IMG/VR virus record: IMGVR_UViG_3300020171_000001 | Span: 32,001 to 96,000 of that record | Length of the DNA: 64,000 nt | Direction: 5' to 3' (one strand) | Source: a virus | Shown: piece after piece, positions 34,030 through 56,366 of the stretch | How positions within the stretch are numbered: position 1 is the first letter of the stretch | Layout of the letters: each line of letters opens with the position of its first letter | Notes under the pieces: generated by a model | What the model was told of the DNA's origin: nothing | Databases searched by the model: none | What the model saw: only the letters and a program-made list of their open reading frames with translations | Made by a program: the position numbers and the translations under genes

Positions 34030-34225
34030 CGTCCACCCGCCGCTCGACGCGCCGAAGCGTTTCCGCCACTTCGATCTGGGATTTGATGCTGGCGGTGGAC
34101 AGTTCCATGAGGGCCTTCGTCAAGTCCTTGATGGTCGCGAGCGCTTGCAGATACAGGTAGAGGAGCACGGCACCCAGAACGTAGCCGCCGCCGAGCTTGA
34201 GCAGTGAGAGCGTGAGCGTTTCCAA
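34019..34225 (-). CDS. single-TM coiled-coil protein (holin-like)
   Basis: TM segment followed by amphipathic helix; lysis context. Confidence 0.5.
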   Translation of the reverse strand: METLTLSLLKLGGGYVLGAVLLYLYLQALATIKDLTKALMELSTASIKSQIEVAETLRRVERRVDDER

Positions 34226-34250
34226 TGGGCGTGCCTATCCTGTCTCCGCG

Positions 34251-34997: not shown

Positions 34998-35495
34998 GGG
35001 CTAGCCCTCCAGGTCCAGGTGAGAGATCGTGCCGTCGGCGCCGCGCTGGCCCCACTTCCCCGCGTCGGCGTCGTATGCCACGCCAGCGCCAACGCCTGTC
35101 ACGAGGCGCAGCTTGGCGATTTCGAGTTGCGCCTCTTGCAGTGCGATGGCGGCTTGGTTCTCGAGGTCGCGTGCGTGCGTGAGCTTGTCCATCACGCCGG
35201 CGGCCTCCTTCTCGGTGGGGTGTCGCGGCTTCACGGCTTCACCGCCTTGTCTACCCGCGGCAGGCCGGCGGTCAGATCGCCAACGGCCGAGAGCACAGAG
35301 GCGTGGAGCACGGCGTTGCGCACCCGCGTGAACGCCGTGCCATCGAGCTGTACGAGGATCTCCTCGGGCACGGGGCCGTCGGTGTCCAGTGCGAGGCGCA
35401 TCTCGCCGCTGCGCAGGTCCACCGTTACCGCGACGATATCAGCCGTAGTAATGTTCCCATCTATGGCTTTGCGAATTTTGCCCATGGCTCAATCC

Positions 35496-36743: not shown

Positions 36744-36752
36744 GCTGTTCTC

Positions 36753-37138
36753 CTAGACCCGGATGGCGATTAGCACGGTGAGCGAACCGATCCCTGCAGC
36801 CGGGGTGTAGACCACGCGGAGATACGAAGCCGCAGTGGCCACATCATCAGCGATGTGGCCGAAAATGCTGCCAGCCGCGACGGCCTGGCTTCCCTTGGTC
36901 TCCCAGTGCGAACCGTCCAGGGAGAACCGTCCAGGGAGACCTCCCAGGTGACATCCCCCTGGTGCGTCGGGACGGCGGGCGGGTCAGGGGCGACGGCCAC
37001 GGAGAAAAACTGGAAGCAGAGGCGGCGAACTGGCTGACCGGCTTCATCTGGGTTTCCCAGGATAACCGTCGGGGACGTGATGATACCGGACATGTCGCCG
37101 GAGTCGACGAGTGTTCTTTGGCCAGGCGTGGGGGGCAT
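36753..37138 (-). pseudogene. small virion-type protein frameshifted by a 14-bp tandem duplication
   Basis: GAACCGTCCAGGGA x2 at 36910-36937; removing one copy gives a 123-aa ORF (EVSLDGSHW...YLRVVYT) ending at TAG 36753. Confidence 0.7.
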
Positions 37139-37187: not shown

Positions 37188-37580
37188 TTACAAACGGACC
37201 TCGCGTGCGCGCCGGAGCAAGGACAGGACCGGAGGACTCGAGTCGACGGGGAGCAGGGGATGAACTGCCGCGTTCAGGGCACTGTCATCTGCCAGACGGG
37301 CCAGAGCATCACCGTGGCAGGCCCGCGGAGCACACCAGCATCCAAGGACCTTTCCGCGAAGACCTGATAGCGTTGCCATGATGCGCGGCTGCGTCACAAC
37401 CCATTGAGCATAGCGTTGGATGGCCTCAGCCCGTGTTCGCACGCGGTACTGCGCCAGGGTTCCAGGGCAATGGGAAAACGGATTGCCGTACAGCGAAGGC
37501 CGGCCTATGTACACATCGTAGGCTTCGTGCCGGCAATTGACCACGCGGGTCGACGGCTGCGTGCCCTGCGAGTACTCCAT
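37188..37580 (-). CDS. DUF4326-family protein
   Basis: DVYIGRPS.YGNPF, L.GK.LGCWCAP..CHGD.L. Confidence 0.85.
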   Translation of the reverse strand: MEYSQGTQPSTRVVNCRHEAYDVYIGRPSLYGNPFSHCPGTLAQYRVRTRAEAIQRYAQWVVTQPRIMATLSGLRGKVLGCWCAPRACHGDALARLADDSALNAAVHPLLPVDSSPPVLSLLRRAREVRL

Positions 37581-37667
37581 GCAGTCAACGGGCATGACTG
37601 CGGAATCGCGCGACGGGCCAGGGCCCTGAGCAGAGCACAAGGGATGCGGACAGAACCCGCATGGACT

Positions 37668-38540: not shown

Positions 38541-39533
38541 TCAAGCAGCTTGAGCCATGATTTCCTGGAACCACCGGGTGGACCAGAGAGGCTCGCCATC
38601 CGGGCGCCATGCCTGCGGGATGAAGAGGCCCTTCTTGGTCTGCTCCTCCACGATCATGTCCGGGACACCAAGTTCCCGGGCCACGACGCGCAGGGGCGCT
38701 TTGCAGTACTCAGATGTGACTCGCTCGTCGGGGAACAGACGACCGGCTGCCTCGCGCACCATCGGGTGCCCGAAGGGGAAACGTACCTCGGCGCCGAAGG
38801 CCTGGAGGCACGCGGTCTCGTTGACCAGGAGCGGGGGCAGGCCATGATGGAGGTCCACTAGCCGGGCCATCTCCACGGCAGACGTTACGTTGGCTGCGTG
38901 TTTGTCGATCAGCTCGTAGGCCTCTGCGGTGGGGACCGTGCGAGCGATCATTCGGGCCGCTGCGTCCCGCGGGCCGTCAATGCCCAGCACGTGCCGGATG
39001 ATCCCTTTGTAGGCCACGAGGCGGTAGTCCGCGAAGATCTTGTCGAGGTAGTGCAGCACGCGGTAGCGTGTGTAGCCACCGAACAGCTCGTCGGCGCACT
39101 CACCGGTGAGCAGGACTTCGATGCCGTCAGCCTGCGCTCGCCGAGCCGCGAACCACTGGCACACCTGGGACCACGAACCGGTCCCATGGGTGAGCCGGTA
39201 GACTTCTGGAAGCGCGTCAAGCATCTCCTCGCGGGAGAAGGTCACTTCGGTGACCGGAAAGCCACGGGCGGCCAGCCGAGCCGCTGTGATGTTGTCCTGC
39301 TCGGGCCAGGTCACGCAGTAGAGGTGGTCAAGTCGGGCGATAGCCTGGATGATGGCCGAGTCGAGGCCACCCGAGAGCAGTAGGCCAGTGCCACTCGGGC
39401 CCTGCGGCGCGATAGACTCTTGCACTGCGGTGGCCAACGCCTTCGAGATGCTTTGGTGCATTCTGCCTGCCTCCTCTACGCACCGATCTGTGCGCCTACG
39501 GATTTGCGTTTTCGTGAGGGTAGCTATGGCCAT
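38541..39533 (-). CDS. asparagine-synthetase-like ATP-dependent amidase/ligase (synthetase domain only)
   Basis: LLSGGLDS, LTGECADELFGGY, EVRFPF, K..LR; no N-terminal glutaminase domain. Confidence 0.85.
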   Translation of the reverse strand: MAIATLTKTQIRRRTDRCVEEAGRMHQSISKALATAVQESIAPQGPSGTGLLLSGGLDSAIIQAIARLDHLYCVTWPEQDNITAARLAARGFPVTEVTFSREEMLDALPEVYRLTHGTGSWSQVCQWFAARRAQADGIEVLLTGECADELFGGYTRYRVLHYLDKIFADYRLVAYKGIIRHVLGIDGPRDAAARMIARTVPTAEAYELIDKHAANVTSAVEMARLVDLHHGLPPLLVNETACLQAFGAEVRFPFGHPMVREAAGRLFPDERVTSEYCKAPLRVVARELGVPDMIVEEQTKKGLFIPQAWRPDGEPLWSTRWFQEIMAQAA

Positions 39534-40041
39534 GGCGCGGGTCTCGACCGAGAAACCCTGTGAGGTCCCCAAGCTTGTCCTTGGCGTCAAGCGGTAGGAC
39601 AAGAAGTTTGTCCTTGCCTGCTCTTCTGAAGCAGCGGCGGACGCAGTCCTCGTGCTGGTCGAAGATGTCCCCGAACTGCCCACGGTGGAACCGCCGGGTG
39701 CCGAAAGTGCTCATGTTGCTGAGGTGCGTGTCAGGGTCATCGCTGGCCACCCGGTGCGCCTCCCACCACCGCTCGCAGGAGTCCAGCCAAGTCTCGCGCT
39801 GGCGGGTCGTGAGAATGAATTGGCTCTTGGGGTAGACGCGATCGAGATGCCGGTAGTAGCGAGTGCCGAAGTGGACCAGAGCATCCCAGGTATCAGGTTG
39901 CCAAGTGAAGTTCGCCTCTTCCAAGACCTGCTTGTAGAAGCCGAAGGGGTTGTGGATCACCCGGAGGTCGAAGCTCTCCAGTGCTTTGGCCAAGCTCACT
40001 GTTCCCGTCTTGGGCAGGCCGATGCCGAAGATCTTGCTCAT
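39496..40041 (-). CDS. sulfotransferase-family protein
   Basis: KIFGIGLPKTGT.SL..AL PAPS loop; FILT.R....W..S. Confidence 0.8.
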   Translation of the reverse strand: MSKIFGIGLPKTGTVSLAKALESFDLRVIHNPFGFYKQVLEEANFTWQPDTWDALVHFGTRYYRHLDRVYPKSQFILTTRQRETWLDSCERWWEAHRVASDDPDTHLSNMSTFGTRRFHRGQFGDIFDQHEDCVRRCFRRAGKDKLLVLPLDAKDKLGDLTGFLGRDPRHGHSYPHENANP

Positions 40042-40580
40042 GCTTGTGGCCGCCACGCCTCAAGGTTGAGGCTCATCAACCTCCCGTCGGCCTTTCGCAG
40101 GTGGGGAAGATACGCCTGGGAGAAGTCATCCACGTGCGCATGCTCAGTCCTGCGCCAGTCGTAGCGCTGGATGCGCACGAAGCCCGCGGCTGAGAGGGCC
40201 ATGGTGAGCCACGCTTCATCGAAGGCGCAGTGGTGGAAGTTCAGTGGGTGGTCCTGCCCCCCGTAGAGTAGGCCGTGGAGTCCTTCAAGGCTCTTAGTCT
40301 CCTGGTACCAAGCGCAGATCGCAGAGAAGTCCGGGACGGCGAGTCGGAGGACCCCACCAGGTGAGAGAACACTGCGCCAGTCCCCGAGCACGCGGGGAAT
40401 AGCCTCGCGGTGAAAATGCTCCAGGATATGCGACGCGTAGACTGCTTCTGCGACTCCTGCACCAAACGCTTCGACGAGGTGGGCCGCAGAGACGATGTGG
40501 TCGATGTGCGCGTGCGGCATCAGGTCGACGTGGACCCAGCCCGCGATGTACCGTGGTCCGCAGCCGATGTGGAGTTTCAC
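40038..40580 (-). CDS. class I SAM methyltransferase
   Basis: KLHIGCG, GW..VD, YASHILEH, R.L.PGG.LR..VPD. Confidence 0.85.
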   Translation of the reverse strand: MKLHIGCGPRYIAGWVHVDLMPHAHIDHIVSAAHLVEAFGAGVAEAVYASHILEHFHREAIPRVLGDWRSVLSPGGVLRLAVPDFSAICAWYQETKSLEGLHGLLYGGQDHPLNFHHCAFDEAWLTMALSAAGFVRIQRYDWRRTEHAHVDDFSQAYLPHLRKADGRLMSLNLEAWRPQA

Positions 40581-41365
40581 GTCGGTACCTCGCAGACCAC
40601 GTTGACGCTCCGTTTGGACAAGTCGTCCTCTGCAATGATGGCCTCGAGGTCCACAGGAGAAAAGGTCTCCTCACGTACGAATCTGTAGCCCATGTCCTGC
40701 AGCAAGAGCAGCATCTCCCGCGTCTTCGTTCCGTAGGTGTAGTTGCTATCGCGAGCAAGCCCTGCAGACTCACGGAGGGTATAGTCGCAGACCTCGAGGA
40801 GCAGGACCGGGCGGAGCCGGGCCAGGGTCCTTCGTGCTCCGAAGATGAAGTCCAACTCGCTGCCATCGAGGTCCACTTTGGCGAAGTCCAGGCGGTCCAT
40901 CTGCAGATCGTCCAGTGCCACCGTTGCTATCTGCGCAGAGGGTTGCTCGCAGCGCGTGGGCGGCCAGGAGTAGTTGAAGAAGGTTTCCTGTGGCCCCTGT
41001 GCCCTCCGCCCAAGAGCTTTGCAGTGGACCACGGTGTTTTCGATGTCGTTTAGTCTGCAGTGCTCCCCGATCAGGGCAGCCGGCTCGGGCATGGCTTCGA
41101 AAGAGGCCACGTGGCCCCCCGGCCCCACCAAATACGCCAGAAGCACTGTGTAGTAGCCCATGTTGGCGCCGGCGTCCAGTACGTGCATGCCTGGGCGGAC
41201 AAGGCTCTCGACGGCCCACGTGGAATAGGGCTCCCAGATGTGGCTTCGGAGGACAGAGCCATCGATGAGCTGTTCGGGGTCGAGTAGCCAATGGAAAGCC
41301 GGAGTGTCTCCCCGCTTCAAGGCTATGGGCGCGTCATACGGCTCTTTCAAACTACGGTAGGTCAT
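40577..41365 (-). CDS. FkbM-family methyltransferase
   Basis: WEP, DAGANMGYY, V.SFE, KVDLDGSE. Confidence 0.85.
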   Translation of the reverse strand: MTYRSLKEPYDAPIALKRGDTPAFHWLLDPEQLIDGSVLRSHIWEPYSTWAVESLVRPGMHVLDAGANMGYYTVLLAYLVGPGGHVASFEAMPEPAALIGEHCRLNDIENTVVHCKALGRRAQGPQETFFNYSWPPTRCEQPSAQIATVALDDLQMDRLDFAKVDLDGSELDFIFGARRTLARLRPVLLLEVCDYTLRESAGLARDSNYTYGTKTREMLLLLQDMGYRFVREETFSPVDLEAIIAEDDLSKRSVNVVCEVPT

Positions 41366-42228
41366 GGCCAAGTTCTCCCAACCAAGGACATTGCTTCGTG
41401 CACACATGGATCTCCGTAGCAAATCTCCACGTAGCGCTGGATAGGGTTTGCCACATTGGGGTCGACGCGGACCCCGCGGATTCCTGGTAGCCCATCAACG
41501 TCATTGCCAGACCACGGGTTCCTGTCAACGGTGCCTGCCAAGATCGCATTGCGCAGTGTATGCACATTCCCGCCGATGTGGTGCTGCCGTTTTTCTCCGT
41601 AGTCCTCTGCTGGAACCGTCAGGATCTTCGTGGTCTCTGAGCTCTTCAAGCCCATAATACGCGGCATGGCATGGCTTGCGTCGGTAGCCAAATCCTCATA
41701 GGCCAGCACATGGTCAGGCGCTGATGCGGAGAGAGCTATGACGTTGGCGGCCCAGTTTGCAGCCCACAGTGCTACGTCGCTGTCTGCTGCGTTCTCACCG
41801 ACGAGAGACCGTGCGTAGGCCCAGGGGGGCTTGTGGACCAGAACCCGGATGTGCTGCTCATCCGGGTTGCAAGTCTGCATGATGCTTGTGTACCCCGGGT
41901 TCTTGCTGGTATCAATGAGCCAGCCCGTGACCCCGAAAAGTTTGCGTACCTGTTGGTAGTGGTCGCGCAAAGTCAGACTGGAGTGCTCCTTGATGAACGG
42001 GCACATGCCGCCGCAAGACCTGCAATATGCCCGGTAGATGCCCGAGGCATAGCGCTGGCGACGAAGGGCGATGAACAAATCGTGGTCGTTTGCACTCATG
42101 TTGAGGACACAGTAGTGGATCCACTCCCCCAGCATGGTCCATCCGGGCTGCGCACCAGCGATTAAGCCGAGGAGCGTGGAGCCGGATCGGCCCATACCCA
42201 CGACGTGGAGGACGCCAGTGCCCGTCAT
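41362..42228 (-). CDS. sulfotransferase-family protein
   Basis: GMGRSGSTLL, GE, IDTSK, YEDLA.D, H.IGGN. Confidence 0.75.
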   Translation of the reverse strand: MTGTGVLHVVGMGRSGSTLLGLIAGAQPGWTMLGEWIHYCVLNMSANDHDLFIALRRQRYASGIYRAYCRSCGGMCPFIKEHSSLTLRDHYQQVRKLFGVTGWLIDTSKNPGYTSIMQTCNPDEQHIRVLVHKPPWAYARSLVGENAADSDVALWAANWAANVIALSASAPDHVLAYEDLATDASHAMPRIMGLKSSETTKILTVPAEDYGEKRQHHIGGNVHTLRNAILAGTVDRNPWSGNDVDGLPGIRGVRVDPNVANPIQRYVEICYGDPCVHEAMSLVGRTWP

Positions 42229-43418
42229 TGCTGAAACTCATTCGGTGCCAAACGCTGGAGGTACCGGCCATAGCAGTGCCGAATGGCCTCTCGGTAGCTG
42301 TTCTTGGCTACGACAGTATCGGTATGCTCTTTGGCTGCCAGGGCCATCCGAGACAGGAACTCTCCGTCCTCCCGTGGGGCCTTCAGCACCTGGAAGAAGT
42401 TCGCAATGGAGCCATCGAACCCAATGTAGTGCGTTCCATTACGGTAGCCGAATTCAGTGAGTTCTCCGTGCCTATCATGGAGAACCTGGACCACGCCTGT
42501 TTCGAACAAGTCGAACAATCTACCGTTGAAGAACGACGAGATCGGGAAGTTTACGCCGAATCGCGATCTGGCGTAATAAGGCGCCACGACGTACCCGTTC
42601 CGGTTGACGTCGTTTCGCGGTAGAAGTTCTCCATCGCGCATGCCAGAGCCACAGAGAAGACTGCGGTGCCCGGTTTCTCCCGCGCGGTGGTTCAACTCGG
42701 TCAGGAACGCACGGCGTTCCGGGTTCATGTCCCCGCGGCAGCCGACGAAGATTAAATCGATGTCGACTGCGCCCCGGCGCAGATCCTCTGCTTTTTGCTG
42801 TACGGTGAATCCTGTGTCCTTGCACCATGCCTGGAGTTGATCGGATGTCCCCCCAATGTGCATACGACAGTAGGGTAGACCGAGAGCCTGGTACTTCTCT
42901 GCAGTTCGCACGCCGGTAGCATAGTCCCAGGTAAGCATTCGATAAACCAGCGCATCGAAATACTTTGCCACAGGGAATGTCTTGATCTCCGATGACCCCG
43001 GGCAGTCATCTCCGAACTCCAGGATGCAGACCTTGAACCTGCCCGAGATCCGCTCCATGACCTCTGGGAAGCACTGATAGGCGTGCTGCCAACGCAGGAT
43101 CTCGTGGTCCCCCGAGAGTCGAAGGAGATCAGAGACCAGTTGGTTTACAACGGCAGGGGCCGGCCTGCGCGTGTTGTCAACCATCCCCGGAGCCATCCCC
43201 TGGGGGAGTTCTAGTACTCCTGCGCGGACATAGGGCAGATACTGAGGGTACGTGGTGGTGTCCACGACGAGGTCTACCCCTTCGTCGGCGAAGCGGTACG
43301 GGTTTCCCCCCCGCCGCTCCTGGATGATCTTGGAGAAATCCGTGTCGTCGGTGTCCGGCCACTTCTGCCAGCTCCGTTGATCGGTGATCAGGACTTCCTT
43401 GACCCCAACAGTTGTCAT
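42225..43418 (-). CDS. glycosyltransferase (GT-B, CgeB/Glyco_trans_1_2-like)
   Basis: IDL.FVG, R..FL, Y..SRFGVN, RLFD...G. Confidence 0.7.
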   Translation of the reverse strand: MTTVGVKEVLITDQRSWQKWPDTDDTDFSKIIQERRGGNPYRFADEGVDLVVDTTTYPQYLPYVRAGVLELPQGMAPGMVDNTRRPAPAVVNQLVSDLLRLSGDHEILRWQHAYQCFPEVMERISGRFKVCILEFGDDCPGSSEIKTFPVAKYFDALVYRMLTWDYATGVRTAEKYQALGLPYCRMHIGGTSDQLQAWCKDTGFTVQQKAEDLRRGAVDIDLIFVGCRGDMNPERRAFLTELNHRAGETGHRSLLCGSGMRDGELLPRNDVNRNGYVVAPYYARSRFGVNFPISSFFNGRLFDLFETGVVQVLHDRHGELTEFGYRNGTHYIGFDGSIANFFQVLKAPREDGEFLSRMALAAKEHTDTVVAKNSYREAIRHCYGRYLQRLAPNEFQQ

Positions 43419-45127
43419 CTCCGGAAGCCCCAGATCGTGGCCACGGAGAGTTCTGGGACGGGGACCTGCGACGCTTCGTAACCCAATAAGCGTATGCCGT
43501 CCACCAGCGCGGCTTGCTCTTCGGCCCCAGGCCGATGAATCCACCAGCGCTCTACGTCGATAACTGCGTCCCGTCCGTTGAGGGCCAAACGGAGCTTGTC
43601 TGCCTCTGGGACTTCCCACGTTCGCCAGTGCTCATTTATGACGTTTGTGGCGACAAGCATGTCGTAATCCGGTCCGGAGTACCCATCGGGGAACGTCGAA
43701 CAAAGCACCTCGAGATTGCACGCGACCCTCGGGTGCATTCGGGCCATCCAGGCCTGAATATACCGAGCTCCACGGGCCCGCTCGGGGTCAATGTCCACGG
43801 CAACCGCGGGGAACCCGAGGGCAGCCAAGGCCAGAGCTAACTGCGCGTGCCCAGCGCCAACTTCGAGAACTCGCTGAGGCCGTGGGCCTTGGCGGGCCAA
43901 CCATCGGACGATTCCACGGTCATTTGCATCGAGGATTGAGCCCGAGTCCATCTTGTACTTGTAGTACCCGTCGATGGCCAGCCGGCCCGGATTCTCTGCG
44001 AACCAGCTCCGGTGTGCTTCCAAGAGACCAGCGTCGAAGGCATCGAGGTCAGGATCACTGGAGTCAGGGCCACCAGGGCCAACGTCATTGCCCCTAACGC
44101 AGGCTCTGCGTGGGCCACCGGCTGAACTGGATTTGGAGTCGGTTTGCATAGGTTTGCTCTCAAGGATACTTGTAACGTCTGCGAAGCAGACAGGGATCTC
44201 CTCACGCGCGCAAGCCGCGGTCAAACCATCCATGGCCCGGGCTACACGGGGATTGGCAACTGGGGTCCACGTGTCAGCGATGCTTCTCCAGTACACGTCC
44301 CAGAGTGAGTGCGCGTGAGTCTTGATATAGAGTGTGCCGCCGATGACAGGGGACTCCTCAAGCCAGGACACTACGGCGTCAGCCGGCGCCGTGTCTCCGT
44401 GGGCAACAGCGTCCAGGGATACTCGGGAAAACGGCGTGGGGCTGTTCCAGATCAGGAATCGCCCTTCGGCTGCCAGCTGAGATGCGCTCGGGATACGCAA
44501 CAACGCGGTTCGGGGCTTGGCCCCGTCTGCGGCATACCCTTTGGGCGCGGAGAAGGGGACCACGGTATGCGGCGCAGGAATCGTTGGGGCGCAATGCCTG
44601 CGGCCGGGCGGAAAGGAAAAGTCTGCTATCACTCCGTGGCGATGGAGAACAGCGATTTCGTCCACGATGTCGCAGATCGCCGGGTCAGAGGCATTGAGGG
44701 ACCAGCAGCCATGGACGAAGGCTGCGTATTGCGGCAGGTGTAGATCTGCGCGCTGGGCCACGAGGTACCCAAGGAGACTGGACAGTCGGTTGGAGTTGGC
44801 CTCTGGATCGTGGGGCCAGCACTCATGATGAATATGGATTTGCTGGTCTACGCCCGCGCCGACGAGGGCCTTCTGGATCTCCAGGTCAGACGCCATCCTC
44901 GCAGGATTCTCACGGACTCCCAGGTCCCTCTCGTCCCCGAGGATAAAGGACTGCGAGCTGAAGAACACGGAGATGGCTCGAGACCAGGAGCATTGCTTCA
45001 GCAATTCGAGCCACCGCCGGACGTGCCCCACAGACATGAAGGAGCCAGAACCATCTGTCTGGTAAGGCTCAAAGTGGTCGCAATGCGCTAGCACGACGCG
45101 CTGGACGCCACGTTGGGCCAGAGTCAT
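43415..45127 (-). CDS. fusion: putative metal-dependent carbohydrate-modifying domain plus SAM methyltransferase
   Basis: DHFEP, HIHH, FVHG.W.L, DFSFP, KTHAH in N-part; VLEVGAG..D in C-part. Confidence 0.55.
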   Translation of the reverse strand: MTLAQRGVQRVVLAHCDHFEPYQTDGSGSFMSVGHVRRWLELLKQCSWSRAISVFFSSQSFILGDERDLGVRENPARMASDLEIQKALVGAGVDQQIHIHHECWPHDPEANSNRLSSLLGYLVAQRADLHLPQYAAFVHGCWSLNASDPAICDIVDEIAVLHRHGVIADFSFPPGRRHCAPTIPAPHTVVPFSAPKGYAADGAKPRTALLRIPSASQLAAEGRFLIWNSPTPFSRVSLDAVAHGDTAPADAVVSWLEESPVIGGTLYIKTHAHSLWDVYWRSIADTWTPVANPRVARAMDGLTAACAREEIPVCFADVTSILESKPMQTDSKSSSAGGPRRACVRGNDVGPGGPDSSDPDLDAFDAGLLEAHRSWFAENPGRLAIDGYYKYKMDSGSILDANDRGIVRWLARQGPRPQRVLEVGAGHAQLALALAALGFPAVAVDIDPERARGARYIQAWMARMHPRVACNLEVLCSTFPDGYSGPDYDMLVATNVINEHWRTWEVPEADKLRLALNGRDAVIDVERWWIHRPGAEEQAALVDGIRLLGYEASQVPVPELSVATIWGFRR

Positions 45128-45735
45128 GGCTTCGTCCCCCAGGGCCACACGCGCACCTCGGGCGTTGCAAGCCCGTGGAAGGTTGCCTTGCTCTCCCCAT
45201 GGGTGTAAAAGCCGTCTTTCCCGACGCCGTTTGTCCCTCGCCACCAGTGGCCGTCTCGGACTATGACGGCTGGGTCGAGAAGAATATCGTCATAGCCCAA
45301 AAGGCGACCGTCGGCTCCCCGGTAGACCGACTGGTGCTCCTTTTCGACATCTAGTAGGAATGGCCGGGCCACGAGGTCCTGGGGCCCTACTACCTCGACG
45401 ACGCTGTGTCCGCTAGTGCCGTCAGAGTGGAGCAGCTCGATCCCCCGGCATTCCACGCGGAAGATATGATATGCAAGAAAGGCAAAGAGAAGGCACTGCT
45501 GCTCGCACCAGCCTGCGCGCTGTTCCAGGATCTCTCGAGGGCAAAGGCTTCCGGGGTGACTCAGGGGGTGAGCGATCTCGGTGCCGACCCAGACCATGAG
45601 ACGAAGTAGCCGCTCTTCTAGGCTCCCGTTCCCCGCCGAGGTCCGAGCCATGGCAATCTGCAGTCGGATTCGTCGATCCGGCTGCACCTCGGCATGGTTG
45701 GCCCAGCGATTCCAGTCGCCGATCGACGCAGGCAT
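45124..45735 (-). CDS. transglutaminase-like protein
   Basis: GWCEQQ, GHSVVEV, LLD (Cys-His-Asp triad order). Confidence 0.65.
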   Translation of the reverse strand: MPASIGDWNRWANHAEVQPDRRIRLQIAMARTSAGNGSLEERLLRLMVWVGTEIAHPLSHPGSLCPREILEQRAGWCEQQCLLFAFLAYHIFRVECRGIELLHSDGTSGHSVVEVVGPQDLVARPFLLDVEKEHQSVYRGADGRLLGYDDILLDPAVIVRDGHWWRGTNGVGKDGFYTHGESKATFHGLATPEVRVWPWGTKP

Positions 45736-45742
45736 TTGGGTG

Positions 45743-46528
45743 TTATCCCCTCTTGAACCCGGAGACGGAAACTGGGAATCCGCCTACCCACGTAGCAACG
45801 AATCCGCTGGCAGTGAACCAACCGGTGACCTCTTCGACGGTATGCCAGAACCGATATCTCGGTGTCAGCCAGTCAAAGAAGTCGCTGATGCACTGCTCAT
45901 CATTCGGATTGTAGGACGGCCGCAGGACCTCTTCCAGGGGCCCCCACGCGGGATGGCACAGGTCGCGGATCTGCACGGCGTATTCACGGCAGATGCCATA
46001 GAGGACCTCGGGGGGAACGGCCCTGGTCACCTCATGCATGAAGTCCACGAGGATCTGATGCTTTGGATCTGCCGTGGGCCGGGTGTAGACCCAGATAGCC
46101 ATTTGGCCCCCCGGCTTGACGGTCCGGGCCACATTGGCGAAGGACTGCGCCGGGTCTGCCGTGTGGTGGAGGACCCCGATGGACATGGCCATGTCGACGG
46201 ACGCATCGGGGAGGAATCCGGGTATCGTCAGGTCCGCCTGGATCAGCTCCGCCTGCGGCGCGTTTTCACGAGCCGCTGCGAGCCCGTCGGGGGACACGTC
46301 CACACCGATGGCCTTGCCTCCGTGGTCAGTGATGAACCGGCAGTATCGGCCGATCCCGCAGCCTGCGTCCAGGACGACCTTGCCCGCCAAGTCTTCAAGC
46401 CGCCAACCGGTCTTCTCCATGAACTGCTTCGCGGTGGTCGGCTGGGGCTCCGGGTGCCGTCTCCAGCGCTGGTCGAAGCCCTTGTCTGATTCGGGGGGTG
46501 ACGACGACGACGACGATGACCGGGTCAT
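45743..46528 (-). CDS. class I SAM methyltransferase
   Basis: VLDAGCG.GRY, GVD.S, S.GVLHHT, KPGG...IWVY, FD.L.P.Y. Confidence 0.88.
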   Translation of the reverse strand: MTRSSSSSSSPPESDKGFDQRWRRHPEPQPTTAKQFMEKTGWRLEDLAGKVVLDAGCGIGRYCRFITDHGGKAIGVDVSPDGLAAARENAPQAELIQADLTIPGFLPDASVDMAMSIGVLHHTADPAQSFANVARTVKPGGQMAIWVYTRPTADPKHQILVDFMHEVTRAVPPEVLYGICREYAVQIRDLCHPAWGPLEEVLRPSYNPNDEQCISDFFDWLTPRYRFWHTVEEVTGWFTASGFVATWVGGFPVSVSGFKRG

Positions 46529-47481
46529 GCTGGCTCCTTGGGCTTGGGCTGGCTCAGATACGGGCCGGCGGGGGCAAGGGCGAAGGTGTTGAGTAGCCAT
46601 GTCAGGAGGACTGCTTGTTGATGCGGGCCGGCGCGGCCGAACCGCAGGGTCTTGACGGCATCGTTGGGCACGGCTGGCACTTCATCAGGAGCCAAGAGCA
46701 GCGTCTCGGAGACATCCTGTACAAGGGCCGCAGCAGCTGGGAGCGGGGCAAGCCCCTCTACCAGTCTCTGGAAGTACGTGGTCCACTCCTCCGCAGTGCG
46801 ACTGAGCCTCGCGAGGTCGCGTGGGAGTCGTGGTGATACCCGGGGAAAGTCTTGAATAGCTGCCCACTGGTCGTCGGTGCACTCGGCACCGCGAAGCAGC
46901 ACGCCGTAGGTGGCCAAAGCATCCCCGAGGTTCGGTATGCGGAACGGCGGTTCCTCCTCCCTGTTCTTCCCGCAAGTCCAGAGGACCGCTTCGTAGGGCT
47001 CGATGAGGGCTGCCAACTCCTCCGGAGTGTACTCGCGGACGTGGAAGGGATTCTGGCACTTCCAGGTATTCCAGTTCGGCGTGGAAAGAAATACAAACCG
47101 TCGTGCCACGCGATGGAGTTGGGACAGGAACTCGGTATCCTCTTCGACGTGCTCGAGGACATCCATGGCCGTGACCGCGTCAAACGACCGATCCCGGAAG
47201 TCCTCGATCGGGAGGTCCAGGACGTGCATACGATCCACGGGCGCCGGGTCAGTCCCCACCACGCGCGTGGTTTCACCGGAACGGAGGAGCGCCAGGCCTC
47301 TCCCGTCCCCAGCGCCAACGTCCAGCACGGACAGATCCTTTGCGAGGTACGATGCCAGGAGGTACCAGTGGTCTTGCCCGCCGGTGGCGTTGCTGGCACG
47401 CTGGGCCGGCGGGAGCTTCTCCAATCGCTGGGGTTCAGTTACATTGCGCGGCACAAGAATTCCTCGTAGCGCTGGGACCAA
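46525..47481 (-). CDS. class I SAM methyltransferase (start uncertain)
   Basis: VLDVGAG.G, FD......DVLEHV, STPN, NPFHVREYT. Confidence 0.85.
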   Translation of the reverse strand: MVPALRGILVPRNVTEPQRLEKLPPAQRASNATGGQDHWYLLASYLAKDLSVLDVGAGDGRGLALLRSGETTRVVGTDPAPVDRMHVLDLPIEDFRDRSFDAVTAMDVLEHVEEDTEFLSQLHRVARRFVFLSTPNWNTWKCQNPFHVREYTPEELAALIEPYEAVLWTCGKNREEEPPFRIPNLGDALATYGVLLRGAECTDDQWAAIQDFPRVSPRLPRDLARLSRTAEEWTTYFQRLVEGLAPLPAAAALVQDVSETLLLAPDEVPAVPNDAVKTLRFGRAGPHQQAVLLTWLLNTFALAPAGPYLSQPKPKEPA

Positions 47482-49589
47482 ACTGACCAGCTCCAGCGCG
47501 CTTCGATCTCTGCCCGGTTGATGCGGCCCATCTCGGCTACACGGAGCGGATCAGCACGGAGCATGCAGATGGCTTGCGCCAGGGCATCCCTGGTGCGTTC
47601 CACGATCACGATCCCTGTGTCTCCAAACTCCTGGATCTGCGAGCGCTGCATCTCCCGGTGGTTTCCGCAGTCCGTGGTGATTAGCGCATGACCCGAGGCC
47701 ATCCCCTCCATCACGGAATTACTCGCCCCTTCGTATTTGGACATGCAAAGGCACAGGTTGGCCTTCAAGTAGAACACGGGCATCTCGGCCGGGGATAGCC
47801 TGGCTGTGTGGTACTCGGCAAAGACCAGGGGCTGCTTCAGACCCTCGCAGACCGGCTTGATGATGGTGTCGAACCCCTTGACGTCTCCGCAGGCCCCAGA
47901 TGCGTGCTGGGCGTTGCCGTTCCAGGAACAGATGACCTCGCCGGACACAGGGGTCGGCTCGGGGAATCGGTTCATGTTTACAGGATTCGTGAGGTACACC
48001 GCATTGGGGCAGTGGTCGCGCAGCTCGTCGTAGTTTTGCTTCGTGACGACATGAAATGCCCGAAAGCGATTCACGAGCGCGATGTCTTCGGCCGTTGGCG
48101 GCCCCGGCTTTTCAGGCTTGAACCAGAGCGCACGGAGGCTGCCGACGGTGCGGTCCCACGGGAGCATCGCGTCGATGCCCCAGCGGTGGTAGACGCAGAA
48201 CACCGTGTTGAACCGCAACATGGCTGCGCGAATGCGCTCGTCCACTTCATGCGCAGGCAGCGCCTGGCGACCCTGCGCCTCAATCCGTGCGTTGCACCAG
48301 TCGATCACGAACCAGTGTGCAAACCCGCGCTTGCTTCCGAGGTAGAGTTCGAGGTCCTTCATGTTCTGGTGGAAGGCCCAATCTCTCACATCGGAGAGGA
48401 GCAATACGTCGCCGTCCTCGGCCATCTGCTCTACCCCGAGTGCCCGGGCCTGCGCCTCTGCGGGCCCACAGTGCCCCCGTGGGGAAACTAGCCGCGGTTC
48501 GCCCGCGGGCTCGGACCCAGGCCCGGGCGCGGGCGCGAGTGCGGGCGCCGCGACAGGCTGAGCCATGGGCTGCAGGACTTCTGGTGAAACCGGCCGCGTC
48601 GTAGCTAACCCCTGGGGGACACTCTGGCCTTGGATCGCGAGAGCCGCCAGGAGGCACCGGCGCCAGTTCTCCAGGGTGACGTCCCATGCCCAGCGTTGCT
48701 CGACCTCGGCGCGGGCGCCACGGGCCATGTTCGTTCGCGCGTCCGGGGCCATGCGCTTAACGGCTTCAATGGCCTCAACCAGGGCCCCGGTCGTGCGCTC
48801 GCGGAGGAGGAATCCGTTGACCTGGTCACGGATCATTCGCTGAGCGATGCCAACGCGCGTGGAGATGGGGATGCGTTGCGACGCCATGCCCTCGAGGATA
48901 GGGTTCGGCGTTCCTTCACGGACGGACATGCAGGTGATGCACGTGATCGCGTGGTAGAACGGTGGCATCTCGTGGAGCGAGCGTGAATTGCCCTTGGCGG
49001 CGTCAAGGACGTGGAGTTCGACATGCGCCTGCTGGCAAGCTTCGCGTACGAGCCCCAGCCCCTTGTAGTCTGTAATGCCCTTGTCTTGCCCCATACGAGC
49101 GCTGTTCCCGCACCAGCCAATGACCGGAGGCCCAGGAGGCAGCCGGGATGGCATGAAGAGCCGCGTGTTGACGCCGTCTGGGACGAGGAAGATGGGCGGG
49201 AGTTTGGCCCCCGCGGACCGCTGCTGGATGTCTTGCCGGATCTCCTCATTGCACACGGCAAGGATGTCCGTTTGCCGCAGTGCCAGGAGGAATTCAGGGG
49301 ACAGGTTGGCCGGCCCGGAGCAAAAACTCTCGTGGTCGTAGACACAAGTAATGAGCGTACCCGGGCGCAGGTTGGCCCGGAGCCGACAAGTATCCCCCCA
49401 CCAGAAGCAGACCAGTACCGAGGAGCCTGAAACCGGGGATAGGAGTTTGCTGCTTTGCTCGATGACAACCGTGGAAAACAGATTGCCAAGGCCTCGGGCG
49501 ATTTCACGGGAGATGTTGTGGAAGGCCCATCCGGGCTGGTCGATGCTGAGTACAAGGGTCTGCGAGGCCATGCGCCCTTCCTTGTCCAT
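47439..49589 (-). CDS. tandem two-domain GT4-like glycosyltransferase
   Basis: Two repeats of D...WAF, W.GN, KG, S..EG..N...EGMAS. Confidence 0.88.
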   Translation of the reverse strand: MDKEGRMASQTLVLSIDQPGWAFHNISREIARGLGNLFSTVVIEQSSKLLSPVSGSSVLVCFWWGDTCRLRANLRPGTLITCVYDHESFCSGPANLSPEFLLALRQTDILAVCNEEIRQDIQQRSAGAKLPPIFLVPDGVNTRLFMPSRLPPGPPVIGWCGNSARMGQDKGITDYKGLGLVREACQQAHVELHVLDAAKGNSRSLHEMPPFYHAITCITCMSVREGTPNPILEGMASQRIPISTRVGIAQRMIRDQVNGFLLRERTTGALVEAIEAVKRMAPDARTNMARGARAEVEQRWAWDVTLENWRRCLLAALAIQGQSVPQGLATTRPVSPEVLQPMAQPVAAPALAPAPGPGSEPAGEPRLVSPRGHCGPAEAQARALGVEQMAEDGDVLLLSDVRDWAFHQNMKDLELYLGSKRGFAHWFVIDWCNARIEAQGRQALPAHEVDERIRAAMLRFNTVFCVYHRWGIDAMLPWDRTVGSLRALWFKPEKPGPPTAEDIALVNRFRAFHVVTKQNYDELRDHCPNAVYLTNPVNMNRFPEPTPVSGEVICSWNGNAQHASGACGDVKGFDTIIKPVCEGLKQPLVFAEYHTARLSPAEMPVFYLKANLCLCMSKYEGASNSVMEGMASGHALITTDCGNHREMQRSQIQEFGDTGIVIVERTRDALAQAICMLRADPLRVAEMGRINRAEIEARWSWSVWSQRYEEFLCRAM

Positions 49590-49696
49590 CGCTAGTGGGC
49601 CTCTTGCCTGCCTATAGGCGGCAGCCGGTCGCGTGGCTTTTGAACTTGCTGCAGTGGCCAGCCAAGAGGCTGCGTGGGGGCCGGGGCAGAGCGGGC

Positions 49697-50050
49697 CTAC
49701 ACCACGCTGAAGTTGCCCACGGCGTGGGCGCCACCGCCGCTGTTGTAGGTGACCACGTGGTAGGATCCGTCGTGCTGATCCTGAATCCGGTACTGGTCCA
49801 GCGTGGGCGGGTTGGTACCGTCTGCCGAGATGCCGGCTCCGGTGCCACCCGCGTAGAGGGTTCCGGAGCCGCCCGCGACGACGAGTGCATCGAGGGTTCC
49901 CGCGTTCCAGCGCGTGATGACCGTGTTGATCCCGGTGATCACAGTGTTCAACGCGCTGACCAGCGAGCCGGTCAGACGCCCGTCGAAGACTTTTGCGCCG
50001 CTCTTGAACGCGGTTACGGCTACGGAGCTGATCGGGGTGATAGCAGCCAT
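49697..50050 (-). CDS. small Thr/Gly/Ala-rich protein (structural-like)
   Basis: AAGGAG SD; codon bias resembling the capsid gene. Confidence 0.6.
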   Translation of the reverse strand: MAAITPISSVAVTAFKSGAKVFDGRLTGSLVSALNTVITGINTVITRWNAGTLDALVVAGGSGTLYAGGTGAGISADGTNPPTLDQYRIQDQHDGSYHVVTYNSGGGAHAVGNFSVV

Positions 50051-50164
50051 GGGGTTACTCCTTGGGATTGGAGACTACGCGGAGTATCGCTGTGCTCTCG
50101 CGTGCTGTCTAGGTTACGAGTTCGCGGGCAGGGCCCATTCCATACCCATGCGCCCAGACTACAG

Positions 50165-50530
50165 CTACTCCAAGTTCATGTCAAAAGTCATATCGGAGTC
50201 GCCCCCAGGCAAGCGCAAATGCAGGAATCCCTGGGAGTCCATGAAGGTCTGCAACCGGTAGAATTTCTGGATCACGGCTGACAACACGCGTGTAGCGGGC
50301 ACACCGGAGACCTGACCTGTTGCAATTTGTATGATTTCGTGGAGTTTGGCCTTGCTAACGGCACTCAGGTCTACGGACGTGGAGCCCTTGGGGCGTTTGC
50401 GTGGGCCCCGCCTTTGCTTTTTCTTCTTCAGCCCTAATGACTCCGAAGCTTTCGAAGCTTTCGAAGCTTTCGAAGCTTTCGAAGCCTTTGGGGCCCTTGC
50501 AACCTTGGTGGTCTTCGGTGGTTTTTCCAT
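50165..50530 (-). CDS. basic hypothetical protein with (KAS)n repeat
   Basis: 9-bp tandem repeat in frame. Confidence 0.5.
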   Translation of the reverse strand: MEKPPKTTKVARAPKASKASKASKASKASESLGLKKKKQRRGPRKRPKGSTSVDLSAVSKAKLHEIIQIATGQVSGVPATRVLSAVIQKFYRLQTFMDSQGFLHLRLPGGDSDMTFDMNLE

Positions 50531-50693
50531 TAGCTGATAGACTACCTACCGTATAGCATGTGGCATGTCAACGTGTATTTGGGGGCGGCAGGGATCCCCC
50601 AGAAAATCAACGGGAGGCATCATAGGTGCTTGCCATGGTGCAAACCGCCGGGTATCCTGGGGGCCAACATCTGGAGTAGTACCGGAGCGGCCT

Positions 50694-52586
50694 ATGGACG
50701 ACATGCATACCACGACGCAGGGCGATCAATCGCAAGCTGCGGCCACTGGCGGAACTGACGTAGAAGCCGGTGGAGCTTTCGTCAAGATACAGAGCTTGGG
50801 CACGGAGTCTTCGGAGAGCGCCCGGGTAGGCGAGCTGTTTGTCACATCAGGTGGAGGCCCCCCGGCGCTTGCTCCGCGGGAGTCCGATAACGATGCTGAC
50901 ACGCTGGTTCGGAACTCTTGGTCCGTGCTCAGCATCGTGACAGCGCTCCTCGACAACGTGTATGGGGCGCCGGTGGATGTGGAGCCTGTGGTGGACCCGG
51001 CCAGCGAAGAGGGTAAGCGAACCATCCGGCGTTGGATCCGGCTCCAACGGGCCATGCGGGGAACCTCGGATCGGACTCATCTGGAGATTTCTCAGGCCTC
51101 GTTGGACCAGGCCTGCGGGTGGCTCGATGCCCGGATCGAATACGAGCTGGCTCGCGCCGAGGGCTTCTACGATACGTGCGGGGTAGACCACGATCTGCAG
51201 ACCACACGTATTCTTCTCGGATTCGACCTCGAGACCCGCGGGCGCGCGCACCTGGAGGTTCTGCGGGGCATGGACGGCACTCCGCGGGCCATTCAGTGGG
51301 TCTCCTCCCGGTTCATCCGGATTGAGCCCAAGAAAGACATCGTGGGGTTCCACGACGTGGATGTCCACAACCCCCTCGTTCAGATCGAAGAAGTACGGTA
51401 CCGCCGGTTTCACGGGTTCTATCAGGTGACGGCCGCGCCAGGGTCCGGCGTGTGGTCATACTTCCGTGAGTTTGGCGACCCGCGTATCCGGAGCCGGCGC
51501 TCGGGCCAGCGGGGCTTCGCGACCCTGGAAGACCTCCAAAGGGCCGAAACCGGACCGGGGGGCGCGGGGTCCGGGGCCCACTACGCGCAGGCAGGTTGGC
51601 CCCCGGGGACCCCCGCCACGGAGATTTTGCACTTTGCCCTCTCCGCGCCCTGGGCAGAATCTACTGGACTGGCCCCCTGGTACGCGGCCAAGCCCGAAGC
51701 TCTGGGTATCCGCGAGCTCGCGCAGGAGAACCGTGGGCTGTTGTCCGGCCAGTTGATTCCGCTGCTGCTCATGATGGTCTCCGGCGGCGCTCGTATCGGG
51801 CCCGATCAGCAGGAGTACTGGCAGCGGCAGTTCCAGTCGATTCGGCCTGGGGAACGCGGGCTATTGATCATGCAAGTTCTCGGTGACCGGCTGGTCGGCT
51901 CAGGGGCTCGCAGCGGTGGCGAGCCCAAGATCCAAATCGAGAACACCCGTCCGGCGCAGCAGGACGATGCCTTGGGCCTGAAGTACACCAAGGAGGCCGA
52001 TCGGGCTGTTCGCCGGCTCTACCGGTTCCCTGCGCCGGCACTGGGAGACTTGGAGGGTGTGAACGAGAACACAGCGGACTTGGCCTTGCGGTTCGCCGAG
52101 AGCCAGATCTACGAGCCCCGAAGGGACGCATTCAACCGGCCCTTCGACCAGATTCTGCGGGAGATGGGGCTGGTCGCCGTTCGCACGCGCACACGACCGC
52201 GTATACCCATGCACCTGGGAGAGATCGCTGAAGCCTTCCAGCGTCTGAGCGAGGCCTCCTTGGTCACACCGGAAGACGTTCGACCGTTCCTCCGCCGCCT
52301 GGTCCCCGGTTTGGACCACCTGGGAGACCGGTATTGGGCCAAGCTCCCCCGACGGGTGACCGAGGCCTACATGATGGCACGAGCGCCGCAAGCCGTGGCC
52401 AATTTCCTCGAGCTCGACGACGCACATGCACCGGCGCCGGAAGCATCTGAGCAGATGCGCTCGGCGGACCTCCAAGACGCGGCTGATGTGCTCGCCGGGT
52501 ACGCCCCGGCAACGGCCCCGACCATGGATTCTGAGAATTCTGAGAATTCTGAGAGTTCTGGGACTACGGAGAAGCTCAATGACTGA
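50694..52586 (+). CDS. portal protein (PBSX/XkdE-like)
   Basis: D.E..G.A.LEV.R...G, YFREFGDPR, ATEILHF, G.APW, F..PA..LG; first gene of head module. Confidence 0.75.
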   Translation: MDDMHTTTQGDQSQAAATGGTDVEAGGAFVKIQSLGTESSESARVGELFVTSGGGPPALAPRESDNDADTLVRNSWSVLSIVTALLDNVYGAPVDVEPVVDPASEEGKRTIRRWIRLQRAMRGTSDRTHLEISQASLDQACGWLDARIEYELARAEGFYDTCGVDHDLQTTRILLGFDLETRGRAHLEVLRGMDGTPRAIQWVSSRFIRIEPKKDIVGFHDVDVHNPLVQIEEVRYRRFHGFYQVTAAPGSGVWSYFREFGDPRIRSRRSGQRGFATLEDLQRAETGPGGAGSGAHYAQAGWPPGTPATEILHFALSAPWAESTGLAPWYAAKPEALGIRELAQENRGLLSGQLIPLLLMMVSGGARIGPDQQEYWQRQFQSIRPGERGLLIMQVLGDRLVGSGARSGGEPKIQIENTRPAQQDDALGLKYTKEADRAVRRLYRFPAPALGDLEGVNENTADLALRFAESQIYEPRRDAFNRPFDQILREMGLVAVRTRTRPRIPMHLGEIAEAFQRLSEASLVTPEDVRPFLRRLVPGLDHLGDRYWAKLPRRVTEAYMMARAPQAVANFLELDDAHAPAPEASEQMRSADLQDAADVLAGYAPATAPTMDSENSENSESSGTTEKLND

Positions 52587-56294: not shown

Positions 56295-56366
56295 GGGCCC
56301 GTGAGGGGCCTGGACGTGGTTTCATGAAGCTACCGGTGGATGCCGGTGCAGGAAAAGGAGCTGAAG

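Follow-up and report, generated by a model that had tools for sequence, protein, structure and literature searches.

In this study, we revisited an operon in a stretch of viral DNA of 64,000 nucleotides, referred to here as the window, which covers bases 32001–96000 of the 157,287-bp IMG/VR virus record IMGVR_UViG_3300020171_000001. The record has direct terminal repeats and a completeness rating of 100%. It had been proposed in an earlier note, made from the letters of the DNA, that positions 38541–49589 of the window hold a mostly overlap-coupled run of 11 genes for the building and decoration of a glycan. We show here that this is a real phage operon of glycan-building and glycan-tailoring enzymes, as is borne out by family matches and conserved synteny, and we regard it as moderately probable that it serves the cytoplasmic glycosylation of virion proteins. 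All of the genes and the domains named for them are present, as 11 head-to-tail open reading frames (ORFs) that run on the minus strand from 49571 to 38541. With gene starts chosen to follow the upstream stop, the gene-model coordinates give 4-nt start/stop overlaps (ATGA or GTGA) at seven of the ten junctions. The genes, numbered g1 to g11 in this direction, are as follows:

47439–49571, minus strand: g1, tandem GT4-GT4 glycosyltransferase (GT), 710 amino acids (aa); Pfam and NCBIfam matches
46525–47454, minus strand: g2, class I S-adenosylmethionine (SAM) methyltransferase; Methyltransf_23 match
45743–46528, minus strand: g3, class I SAM methyltransferase of the conserved core; Methyltransf_11 match
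45124–45735, minus strand: g4, transglutaminase-core-like protein, 203 aa; language-model features and structure
43415–45127, minus strand: g5, barrel like that of carbohydrate esterase family 4 (CE4) deacetylases, followed by a SAM methyltransferase; AlphaFold2 (AF2) fold and Pfam match
42225–43418, minus strand: g6, third glycosyltransferase, GT-B type, 397 aa; recognized through homologues
41362–42228, minus strand: g7, Sulfotransfer_3-like protein; 3'-phosphoadenosine 5'-phosphosulfate (PAPS) loop, features and structure
40577–41365, minus strand: g8, FkbM-family methyltransferase; PF05050 and TIGR01444 matches
40038–40580, minus strand: g9, small class I methyltransferase; weak Pfam match
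39496–40041, minus strand: g10, Sulfotransfer_4 sulfotransferase; PF17784 match
38541–39461, minus strand: g11, AsnB-type synthetase (PP-loop) domain without glutaminase, of the conserved core; PF00733 match

This amounts to three GT, five methyltransferase and two sulfotransferase domains, with one transglutaminase-like, one metal-hydrolase-like and one AsnB-like domain. The first protein, g1, matches Glyco_trans_1_4 (PF13692, 81.6 bits) and Glycos_transf_1 (PF00534, 65.8 bits), each in two stretches, and its linker is rich in Pro and Ala. Both modules carry an E-x7-E motif (E219/E227 and E614/E622) that is conserved in 24 homologues, in all of which E227 and E622 are invariant; judging from these matches, both halves belong to the CAZy GT4/Glycos_transf_1 clan. 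About 39 full-length tandem homologues with 35–66% identity were found, all of them from metagenome or viral contigs. One homologue, P0014 (1082 aa), holds an intein and LAGLIDADG domains (PF14890, PF14528), and an intein within this glycosyltransferase suggests that the gene matters to the phage that carries it. The other glycosyltransferase, g6, has no Pfam, NCBIfam or PDB match of its own, and its assignment comes from homologues with 32–60% identity, 14 of 22 of which match Glyco_trans_1_2 (PF13524), while one is labelled 'glycosyltransferase family 1' by NCBI. Class I SAM methyltransferase domains are found in g2 (Methyltransf_23, 44.5 bits, with a C-terminal half that is uncharacterised), g3 (Methyltransf_11, 75.6 bits), g8 (FkbM, PF05050, 55 bits; TIGR01444, 63.7 bits) and g9 (a weak Pfam match) as well as in the C-terminal part of g5.

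The reading of g5 as a fusion of a metal-hydrolase-like domain with a methyltransferase has held up. Residues 1–325 form a (beta/alpha)7 barrel and the methyltransferase, which is matched by Pfam, lies at residues ~400–570. No Pfam, NCBIfam or PDB profile match was obtained for the N-terminal domain; its AF2 model (pLDDT, the predicted local distance difference test, of 92.8) matches CE4/GH57-type carbohydrate deacetylases with a Foldseek E value of 4e-5. In VIA comparisons, the model gave Z 15.4 and a root-mean-square deviation of 3.7 over 237 residues to 3qbu and Z 14.6 to 3rxz, and most of the top 50 matches were deacetylases or GH57/GH38 enzymes, with Agd3, ArnD and PelA among those listed. 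The deacetylase domain of human NDST1 is also matched (Foldseek E 4.5e-4, VIA Z 11.7), at an identity of ~7–10%. In the alignment, a cluster of His, Asp and Glu residues is invariant (H98, H100, H101, H139, D169, H273), and on the strength of the model the domain is probably a carbohydrate deacetylase. It belongs to a family that numbers more than 300 when clustered at 50%, lacks a Pfam model, has an invariant His-rich site and is often fused to methyltransferases; one member (P0081) is fused to a Sulfotransfer_3 domain. The model also matches the CE4-like domain of the turret protein of Haloferax tailed virus 1 (8qpg_TC, Z 11.4), a precedent for a CE4-like fold within a virion.

Two sulfotransferases had been named in the earlier note, and both stand, by family match or by features and structure together with their PAPS loops. 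The protein g10 matches Sulfotransfer_4 (PF17784) with 64.1 bits (cut-off 22.8), has a PKTGT PAPS loop and, in the sample of relatives, is restricted to this phage. The weaker case of the two is g7, which has a GRSGST motif and falls below the Pfam cut-off (19.6 vs 27) with a weak match on the PAPS loop; compared with Sulfotransfer_3 (PF13469) clusters, it scores 0.97 for language-model features and 0.68–0.70 for the template modelling (TM) score of its structure. The Asn-synthetase-like gene g11 stands as well, with the synthetase half only. Its match to Asn_synthase (PF00733, 129.8 bits) and its SGGLDS PP-loop motif support the synthetase half, and the part aligned to TIGR01536 covers positions 220–514 only, which correspond to that half. 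The N-terminal nucleophile (Ntn) glutaminase domain is missing in this phage, and the Sulfotransfer_4 gene g10 fills the position upstream of g11. The length of g11 is 306–380 aa, as its start may sit up to ~110 nt upstream (38541–39683, minus strand). The AsnB protein of one related locus, L020, has lost the glutaminase half too, while those of three others (L006, L007 and L008) are full-length with a Met-Cys-Gly start and strong GATase_7 matches, from which we conclude that the AsnB family amidates a carboxylate using glutamine nitrogen. For g4, neither Pfam nor a PDB search gave a match; compared with Transglut_core (PF01841) clusters, it scores 0.96 for features and TM 0.65–0.71 on a model with a mean pLDDT of 0.64, and a Cys, a His and an Asp follow one another in the expected order in the sequence. 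It has been proposed that the transglutaminase may attach or cross-link the glycan, an idea for which we find no support, since g4 is present in two lineages only and is fused in one of them (L008) to a g2-type methyltransferase.

None of the 11 proteins has a membrane-like segment in 19-residue hydropathy windows, the sole window above 1.6 being the Rossmann motif of the g5 methyltransferase, and Pfam and NCBIfam scans of the cassette gave no family match to a flippase, ABC transporter, polymerase or priming phosphoglycosyl transferase. Genes for nucleoside diphosphate (NDP)-sugar synthesis and for adenosine 5'-phosphosulfate (APS) kinase were searched for across the whole 157-kb genome and none was found. 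The absence of membrane segments and of flippase, polymerase and sugar-nucleotide genes from the cassette, as first described, is therefore confirmed, and we conclude that the pathway is soluble and that its donors are supplied by the host.

The surroundings of the operon, scanned for promoters and terminators with results at chance level only, contain the following features:

49697–50050, minus strand: 117-aa protein upstream of g1, no known family, with DGTNPP and R-x-Q-D motifs; GC content at third codon positions (GC3) 0.83
50565–52586, plus strand: portal protein, divergent from the cassette; tblastn to annotated portals E 9e-17 and a weak Phage_portal match
56340–57323, plus strand: major-capsid-like protein; phrog_1623 'virion structural protein', E 1.2e-37
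37188–37640, minus strand: DUF4326 protein, between the cassette and the fibre-like gene; 80 bits, phrog_464
35496–36743, minus strand: fibre-like protein, 415 aa, Ala/Gly/Ser/Thr-rich, downstream of the cassette; GC3 0.85 vs 0.65 for the overlapping plus-strand ORF
31084–32484, minus strand: C5 cytosine DNA methyltransferase, beneath a shadow ORF; PF00145, 61 bits, with only model positions 64–181 aligned

The transcription unit probably starts farther upstream than g1 and takes in the 117-aa gene. It has been stated that the operon lies between fibre genes and the portal. The portal side of this statement is supported by tblastn, and the portal gene is followed by genes for a protease-like and then the capsid-like protein. 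The fibre genes on the plus strand have not survived: the Arg/Gly/Val/Ala-rich ORFs at 34197–36773 (858 aa) and 31558–32991 (477 aa) have a GC3 of 0.65–0.73 vs 0.84–0.86 for the minus-strand ORFs beneath them and are antisense shadows, and the plus-strand ORF at 49595–50281 is likewise a shadow, of the 117-aa gene. The fibre-like gene is on the minus strand instead; its product has no match in a PDB search, but a 68-residue motif in it recurs, 47% identical, in the protein encoded behind the cassette of the related locus L007. An annotation of this high-GC genome based on ORF length would mis-call such shadow ORFs as genes. Between the 117-aa gene and the portal, 35 bp from the portal start, a further minus-strand gene (50165–50530) encodes a Lys-rich protein of 121 aa with five tandem K-A-S repeats near its N terminus; its GC3 of 0.65 is below that of its neighbours, and the protein may be DNA-binding or histone-like.

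Relatives were collected by a scan of IMG/VR with a g1 profile, which gave 27 loci onto which all window proteins were mapped, and loci from GTDB were added. In L005/L007, a portal 30% identical to the one described here and further head genes are accompanied by a divergent cassette that begins with a small protein and a GT4-GT4 protein (43% identity) and continues with g2, g3, g6, g8, a Sulfotransfer_3 gene, g9, a full-length AsnB gene and the gene for the fibre-motif protein. The same cassette start is seen in L002 and L011 before their contigs end, and in these relatives identity is 42–43% for the GT, 40–44% for the capsid protein and 28–30% for the portal, the GT being as well conserved as the capsid protein and better than the portal. 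In L020 and L006, which represent two further lineages, the capsid gene is directly followed by the cassette, both being encoded on one strand. The order in L020 is capsid (Phage_capsid_4), small protein, GT, g6, g3, g9, a g7-like gene, a radical SAM gene and AsnB; in L006, the capsid gene and intervening unannotated ORFs are followed by the GT, g3, two radical SAM-SPASM genes, a methyltransferase, an NDP-sugar epimerase/dehydratase and AsnB, after which come homologues of the structural genes that follow the capsid gene in the window. The set in L008/L009 has just one GT, together with a fusion of g2 and g4, with g3 and AsnB and with a radical SAM enzyme. Capsid or portal genes are also found near related GTs in L013, L017 and L029, so that the cassette accompanies head genes in at least ten loci, and it is for this reason that virion proteins are the best reading of its target.

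Three members make up the conserved core (GT, g3 methyltransferase and AsnB), which the small protein usually accompanies; the other enzymes are a shuffled toolbox. Homologues of g3 are 47–54% identical in L005/7, L006, L008/9 and L020, and those of g9 50–51% identical in L005/7 and L020; g2 has homologues in L005/L007 and L008, g6 in L005/7 and L020, and g7 in L020. Tailoring genes such as Sulfotransfer_3, radical SAM and NDP-sugar epimerase/dehydratase genes are swapped among relatives, as a variable surface glycan would predict. Domain fusions tie the parts into one pathway: besides the deacetylase-methyltransferase, deacetylase-sulfotransferase and methyltransferase-transglutaminase-like fusions already mentioned, GT4-methyltransferase fusions occur among the g1 homologues (P0043, P0045, P0049 and P0050).

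These data also bear on the origin of the block. It had been stated as a ground for rejecting the proposal that the block might be a mis-assembled host lipopolysaccharide (LPS) locus, and in a wider form this explanation holds that an LPS locus without phage function was either mis-assembled into the record or recently captured from a host. The GC content of the block (0.60–0.63), which is slightly under that of some neighbouring regions in a window with a GC of ~63% throughout, would fit such a history. However, the terminal repeats and the completeness rating speak for an intact genome, the GC by codon position is like that of other phage genes, and synteny is kept in phages whose portals are only ~30% identical. 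No match at E 1e-5 was obtained when g1, g11 and the g5 N-terminal domain were compared by tblastn with 50,697 GenBank phage records, and megablast of the block against GenBank phages gave nothing useful. Among the genomes of 185,579 prokaryote species in GTDB, only single-domain GT4s with at most 33% identity to g1 were found, some of which have g2/g3-like methyltransferase neighbours, and no close bacterial homologues turned up. As the GT family is absent from GenBank phages and has only distant single-domain relatives in bacteria, a recent capture of a host LPS locus can be set aside. The block is a long-standing phage-specific module rather than a product of mis-assembly or of fresh capture from a host, and an artefact is hardly credible. 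The contig of one relative was binned with a metagenome-assembled genome of Deltaproteobacteria, and the host is probably not an actinobacterium.

A phage-owned cassette could still act on the host. According to this explanation, the enzymes remodel a host glycoconjugate from the cytoplasmic side, be it a precursor of LPS, capsule or cell wall or a cytoplasmic polymethylated polysaccharide, and thereby bring about superinfection exclusion, receptor masking or metabolic redirection. GT4, FkbM, sulfotransferase and AsnB-type enzymes are typical of bacterial surface-polysaccharide loci, the closest models in NCBIfam belong to exopolysaccharide GT4s and to the XrtA/PEP-CTERM amidotransferase, the bacterial single-domain GT4s neighbour methyltransferases of the g2/g3 type, and the pathway depends wholly on host precursors. 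Yet neither membrane proteins of any kind nor a priming phosphoglycosyl transferase, a flippase or an ABC transporter were found in the cassette, the tandem GT family is phage-specific, and a host-directed moron would not be expected to keep, as this cassette does, the company of head genes and of a phage-specific small protein. We therefore consider a host target unlikely.

The small protein deserves particular attention. Homologues lie directly upstream of the GT gene in L002, L005, L007, L010, L011 and L012, with a weak one in L020, and the arrangement, with the small-protein gene immediately upstream of the GT gene, recurs in eight loci or more. For both the closest GT homologue (P0002, 66% identity) and the closest small-protein homologue (P0231, 67%), the longest contig measures 3,884 bp, and this is probably one and the same contig. 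A word-based search gave one relative of the small protein, the others being found with a profile built from five homologues of the fetched loci. Members of the family are 95–165 residues long and have in common a helix at the N terminus, a stretch rich in Gly, a conserved beta-rich C-terminal part and the invariant residues D-G-x-N-P and R-x-x-D; neither the protein nor the family matched anything in Pfam, PHROG or PDB, the PDB search having included the family profile. In L020 the gene sits right after the capsid gene, a slot that often encodes decoration proteins. A predicted complex of g1 with the 117-aa protein scored 0.05 with controls not run, a value that speaks neither for nor against binding. 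We regard the small protein as a candidate for the role of acceptor, adaptor or virion protein.

It has also to be considered whether the small protein is the precursor of a glycopeptide of the kind known as ribosomally synthesized and post-translationally modified peptides (RiPPs), secreted or intracellular and matured by the GTs and by the AsnB-like, transglutaminase-like and radical SAM/SPASM enzymes, rather than a part of the virion. Such a precursor would be expected to pair strictly with modifying enzymes, as the small protein does, the radical SAM-SPASM enzymes in L006 and the radical SAM enzymes in L020 and L008 would fit as well, and an AsnB homologue together with a transglutaminase-like protease is the lasso-peptide toolkit. 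However, the AsnB proteins of the relatives are true glutamine amidotransferases (Met-Cys-Gly, GATase_7) and not lasso cyclases, g4 is restricted to two lineages, neither a PqqD-like recognition element nor an export protein was seen, and a protein of 95–165 residues with a conserved beta-rich C-terminal part is unlike a leader-core peptide. A RiPP-style product is thus very unlikely. Its most specific form, maturation by lasso-peptide B and C proteins, was ruled out, because the AsnB proteins of the relatives keep the catalytic Cys and GATase_7 and g4 is mostly missing.

Phage DNA had been named as a second possible target next to virion proteins. In this model the glycan is attached to DNA by post-replicative hypermodification, as in clusters of C5-methyltransferase, 5mYOX and GT genes, and the tailoring enzymes decorate the DNA-linked sugar. 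Clusters of this kind combine a C5-methyltransferase and a 5mYOX/TET enzyme or a ThyS enzyme with GTs and place mono- to trisaccharides on 5-hydroxymethylcytosine (bioRxiv 10.1101/2023.12.21.572611; PMC13326640). They use repurposed GT-A/GT-B enzymes and can adjoin structural genes (bioRxiv 10.1101/2023.12.21.572611), and in the genome described here the C5 cytosine methyltransferase gene (31084–32484) is part of the same leftward block. The likeness thus lies in phage GT-B enzymes, which in the DNA clusters have been repurposed from cell-envelope pathways, in a position that is sometimes near structural genes and in the presence of a C5 methyltransferase. Unlike in these clusters, no base-activating oxygenase or hydroxymethylase was found, and the C5 methyltransferase gene, although on the same strand, lies at some distance from the cassette. 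The complete genome has no ThyA-like hydroxymethylase (PF00303), the control for this search having matched in 10 of 14 genomes; sequence models detected no 2OG-Fe(II) oxygenase (PF13640, PF13532) and no TGT/DpdA, and there was no match to Tet_JBP (PF12851), a weak negative as the control matched nowhere. In addition, ~6 kb separate the C5 methyltransferase gene from g11, a stretch that holds at least eight genes, fibre-like and unknown ones among them, the cassettes of relatives are without a base-activating enzyme among the ORFs scanned, and sulfation, amidation and deacetylation of DNA sugars are unmentioned in the DNA-glycan papers searched. Of the two targets first proposed, virion proteins are therefore the better supported, by the company of head genes that the cassette keeps, and DNA is weakened to the point of being decidedly unlikely. 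The neighbours of the C5 methyltransferase gene at 32851–33438 and 29925–30791 belong to no family, and an Extensin-like_C protein (PF06904, 31 bits) encoded at 29011–29706 on the minus strand may be a cell-wall peptidase or lysis-related.

Glycosylation of virion proteins is accordingly the model with which we proceed. It is favoured by the placement of the cassette in or against the head modules of differently organised genomes, by the phage-specific small partner and by the variable tailoring set. The substrates, the order of the steps and the target are inferred; the enzyme families, the solubility, the phage origin, the head-gene synteny and the domain fusions are shown by the data. According to this model, a soluble pathway would run on host nucleotide-sugars, SAM, PAPS and ATP and would first assemble an oligo- or polysaccharide on an acceptor that the phage itself makes, most probably one of the virion proteins, and then tailor it. 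Three or more glycosidic linkages could be formed by the two GT4 modules of g1 together with g6. One sugar may then lose its N-acetyl (or an O-acyl) group to the CE4-like domain of g5, and the position thus freed may be taken by the fused methyltransferase or by a sulfotransferase, following the logic of an N-deacetylase/N-sulfotransferase. Methylation of hydroxyl groups at different positions would fall to g2, g3, g8 and g9, and sulfate addition to g7 and g10. We suggest that g11 adenylates a carboxylate, for example that of a uronic acid, and amidates it with free ammonia, for which the relatives would use glutamine, and that g4 has an accessory role tied to the g2 methyltransferase. The 117-aa protein upstream of g1 might serve as acceptor or adaptor, and the Thr-containing C-terminal tail of the capsid protein is a second candidate acceptor. 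The capsid-like protein (56340–57323) ends in G-V-L-S-T and the capsid proteins of GT-bearing relatives keep a similar short Thr-containing tail, while a 335-aa protein of the structural block (62186–63193, plus strand) ends in TTTT; as acceptor sites, these tails are only suggestive.

Several points weigh against this model. Both the glycan and the acceptor motif are predictions made from the genes. Position does not discriminate between virion and DNA targets, as DNA-glycosylating clusters too occur beside structural genes (Pyle et al., bioRxiv 10.1101/2023.12.21.572611), and a C5 cytosine DNA methyltransferase is encoded ~6 kb downstream of the cassette on the same strand. The nitrogen-donor domain being absent, g11 may do something other than amidation. 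The AF2 model of the small protein (pLDDT 53) is too poor for a fold search, and the capsid tail is short and not distinctive, Ser or Thr being the last residue in 24 of 201 ORFs. A bolder version of the model would make the 117-aa 'DGTNPP' protein the glycan carrier of the virion, the core of a phage 'proteoglycan' bearing a de-N-acetylated, N-/O-sulfated, O-methylated and amidated polysaccharide made in part by NDST-like deacetylase/sulfotransferase chemistry, which is otherwise familiar from the heparan sulfate of animals, and this version we put forward as a rather doubtful possibility.

Virion glycosylation in mycobacteriophages, with Che8, Corndog and Myrna as examples, was reportedly described in 2023 by Freeman and colleagues in Cell Host Microbe. 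Two papers that cite this work attribute it to GT and methyltransferase genes (PMC13313380, PMC10568470). The cassette described here resembles that system in its phage-encoded soluble GTs and methyltransferases, in their position with or near virion genes, in the use of host sugar donors and in a glycan coat on capsid or tail, which here is proposed from genes. However, g1, g11 and the g5 N-terminal domain are without detectable homology in GenBank phages, so that the likeness is functional and not by descent, and the cassette is larger, with two sulfotransferases, a CE4-like deacetylase, an AsnB-type enzyme, a transglutaminase-like protein and a small partner. In chlorovirus PBCV-1, the protein A064R has two rhamnosyltransferase domains and a methyltransferase domain. 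Here, too, the machinery is virus-encoded and cytoplasmic (in PBCV-1 independent of the endoplasmic reticulum and Golgi), the enzymes are multi-domain GT-GT(-methyltransferase) proteins, the GT-methyltransferase fusions among the g1 relatives add to the resemblance, and the PBCV-1 sugars are methylated. Unlike our phage, PBCV-1 is a giant virus of eukaryotes, its GT domains are of the GT-A type and its glycans are N-linked, and there is no homology; we know of no description of sulfation, amidation or deacetylation in PBCV-1. Taken together, we regard the cassette, with moderate confidence, as an elaborate counterpart, without homology, to the capsid glycosylation of mycobacteriophages and chloroviruses.

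Individual steps have cellular counterparts. In bacteria, WbdA is a tandem GT4 mannosyltransferase, WbdD a terminating methyltransferase and WbpS an AsnB-type enzyme that forms uronamides. The same families and chemistry are met here, namely tandem GT4 domains, O-methylation and AsnB-type amidation of uronic acids; however, the bacterial enzymes use undecaprenyl-linked membrane acceptors and export, whereas nothing in the phage cassette is membrane-associated, and the bacterial polysaccharide GT4s closest to g1 differ from it in being single-domain and at most 33% identical. With NDST1, the enzyme of heparan sulfate, the operon shares the fold of the g5 N-terminal domain, the fusion of this domain to Sulfotransfer_3 in P0081 and the presence of two sulfotransferases. 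This is a likeness of fold and architecture only, bacterial CE4 deacetylases being better matches and the fusion partner in g5 being a methyltransferase. Distinctive here are an AsnB protein as core member, a CE4-like deacetylase-methyltransferase fusion, a transglutaminase-like protein and a strictly linked small orphan protein. The statement in the earlier note that no phage system with this combination has been described holds for the published literature searched.

To our knowledge, virion glycosylation by phage enzymes has been shown experimentally only in a few actinobacteriophages and, in a different form, in chloroviruses. If the model put forward here is correct, tailed phages of other hosts coat their particles too, and with a chemistry much richer than that known to date, in which several O-methyl groups are joined by sulfate, by amide and by amines that are either free or methylated. 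That the GT is strictly paired with a small orphan protein points to a two-gene route for identifying the acceptor. The coat would also bear on the unexplained 'sulfotransferase AMGs' (auxiliary metabolic genes) of viromes, whose function in phages has been described as unclear (PMC10580990); in the literature searched, phage sulfotransferases figure solely as genes of this kind. Should the small protein indeed be a proteoglycan core, its sugar coat would govern adsorption, the evasion of immunity or defence, or the behaviour of the particle in groundwater sediment. More generally, a charged and variable coat on the virion would bear on host recognition, on the evasion of antibodies and of glycan-sensing defence, on particle stability and on transport through aquifers.

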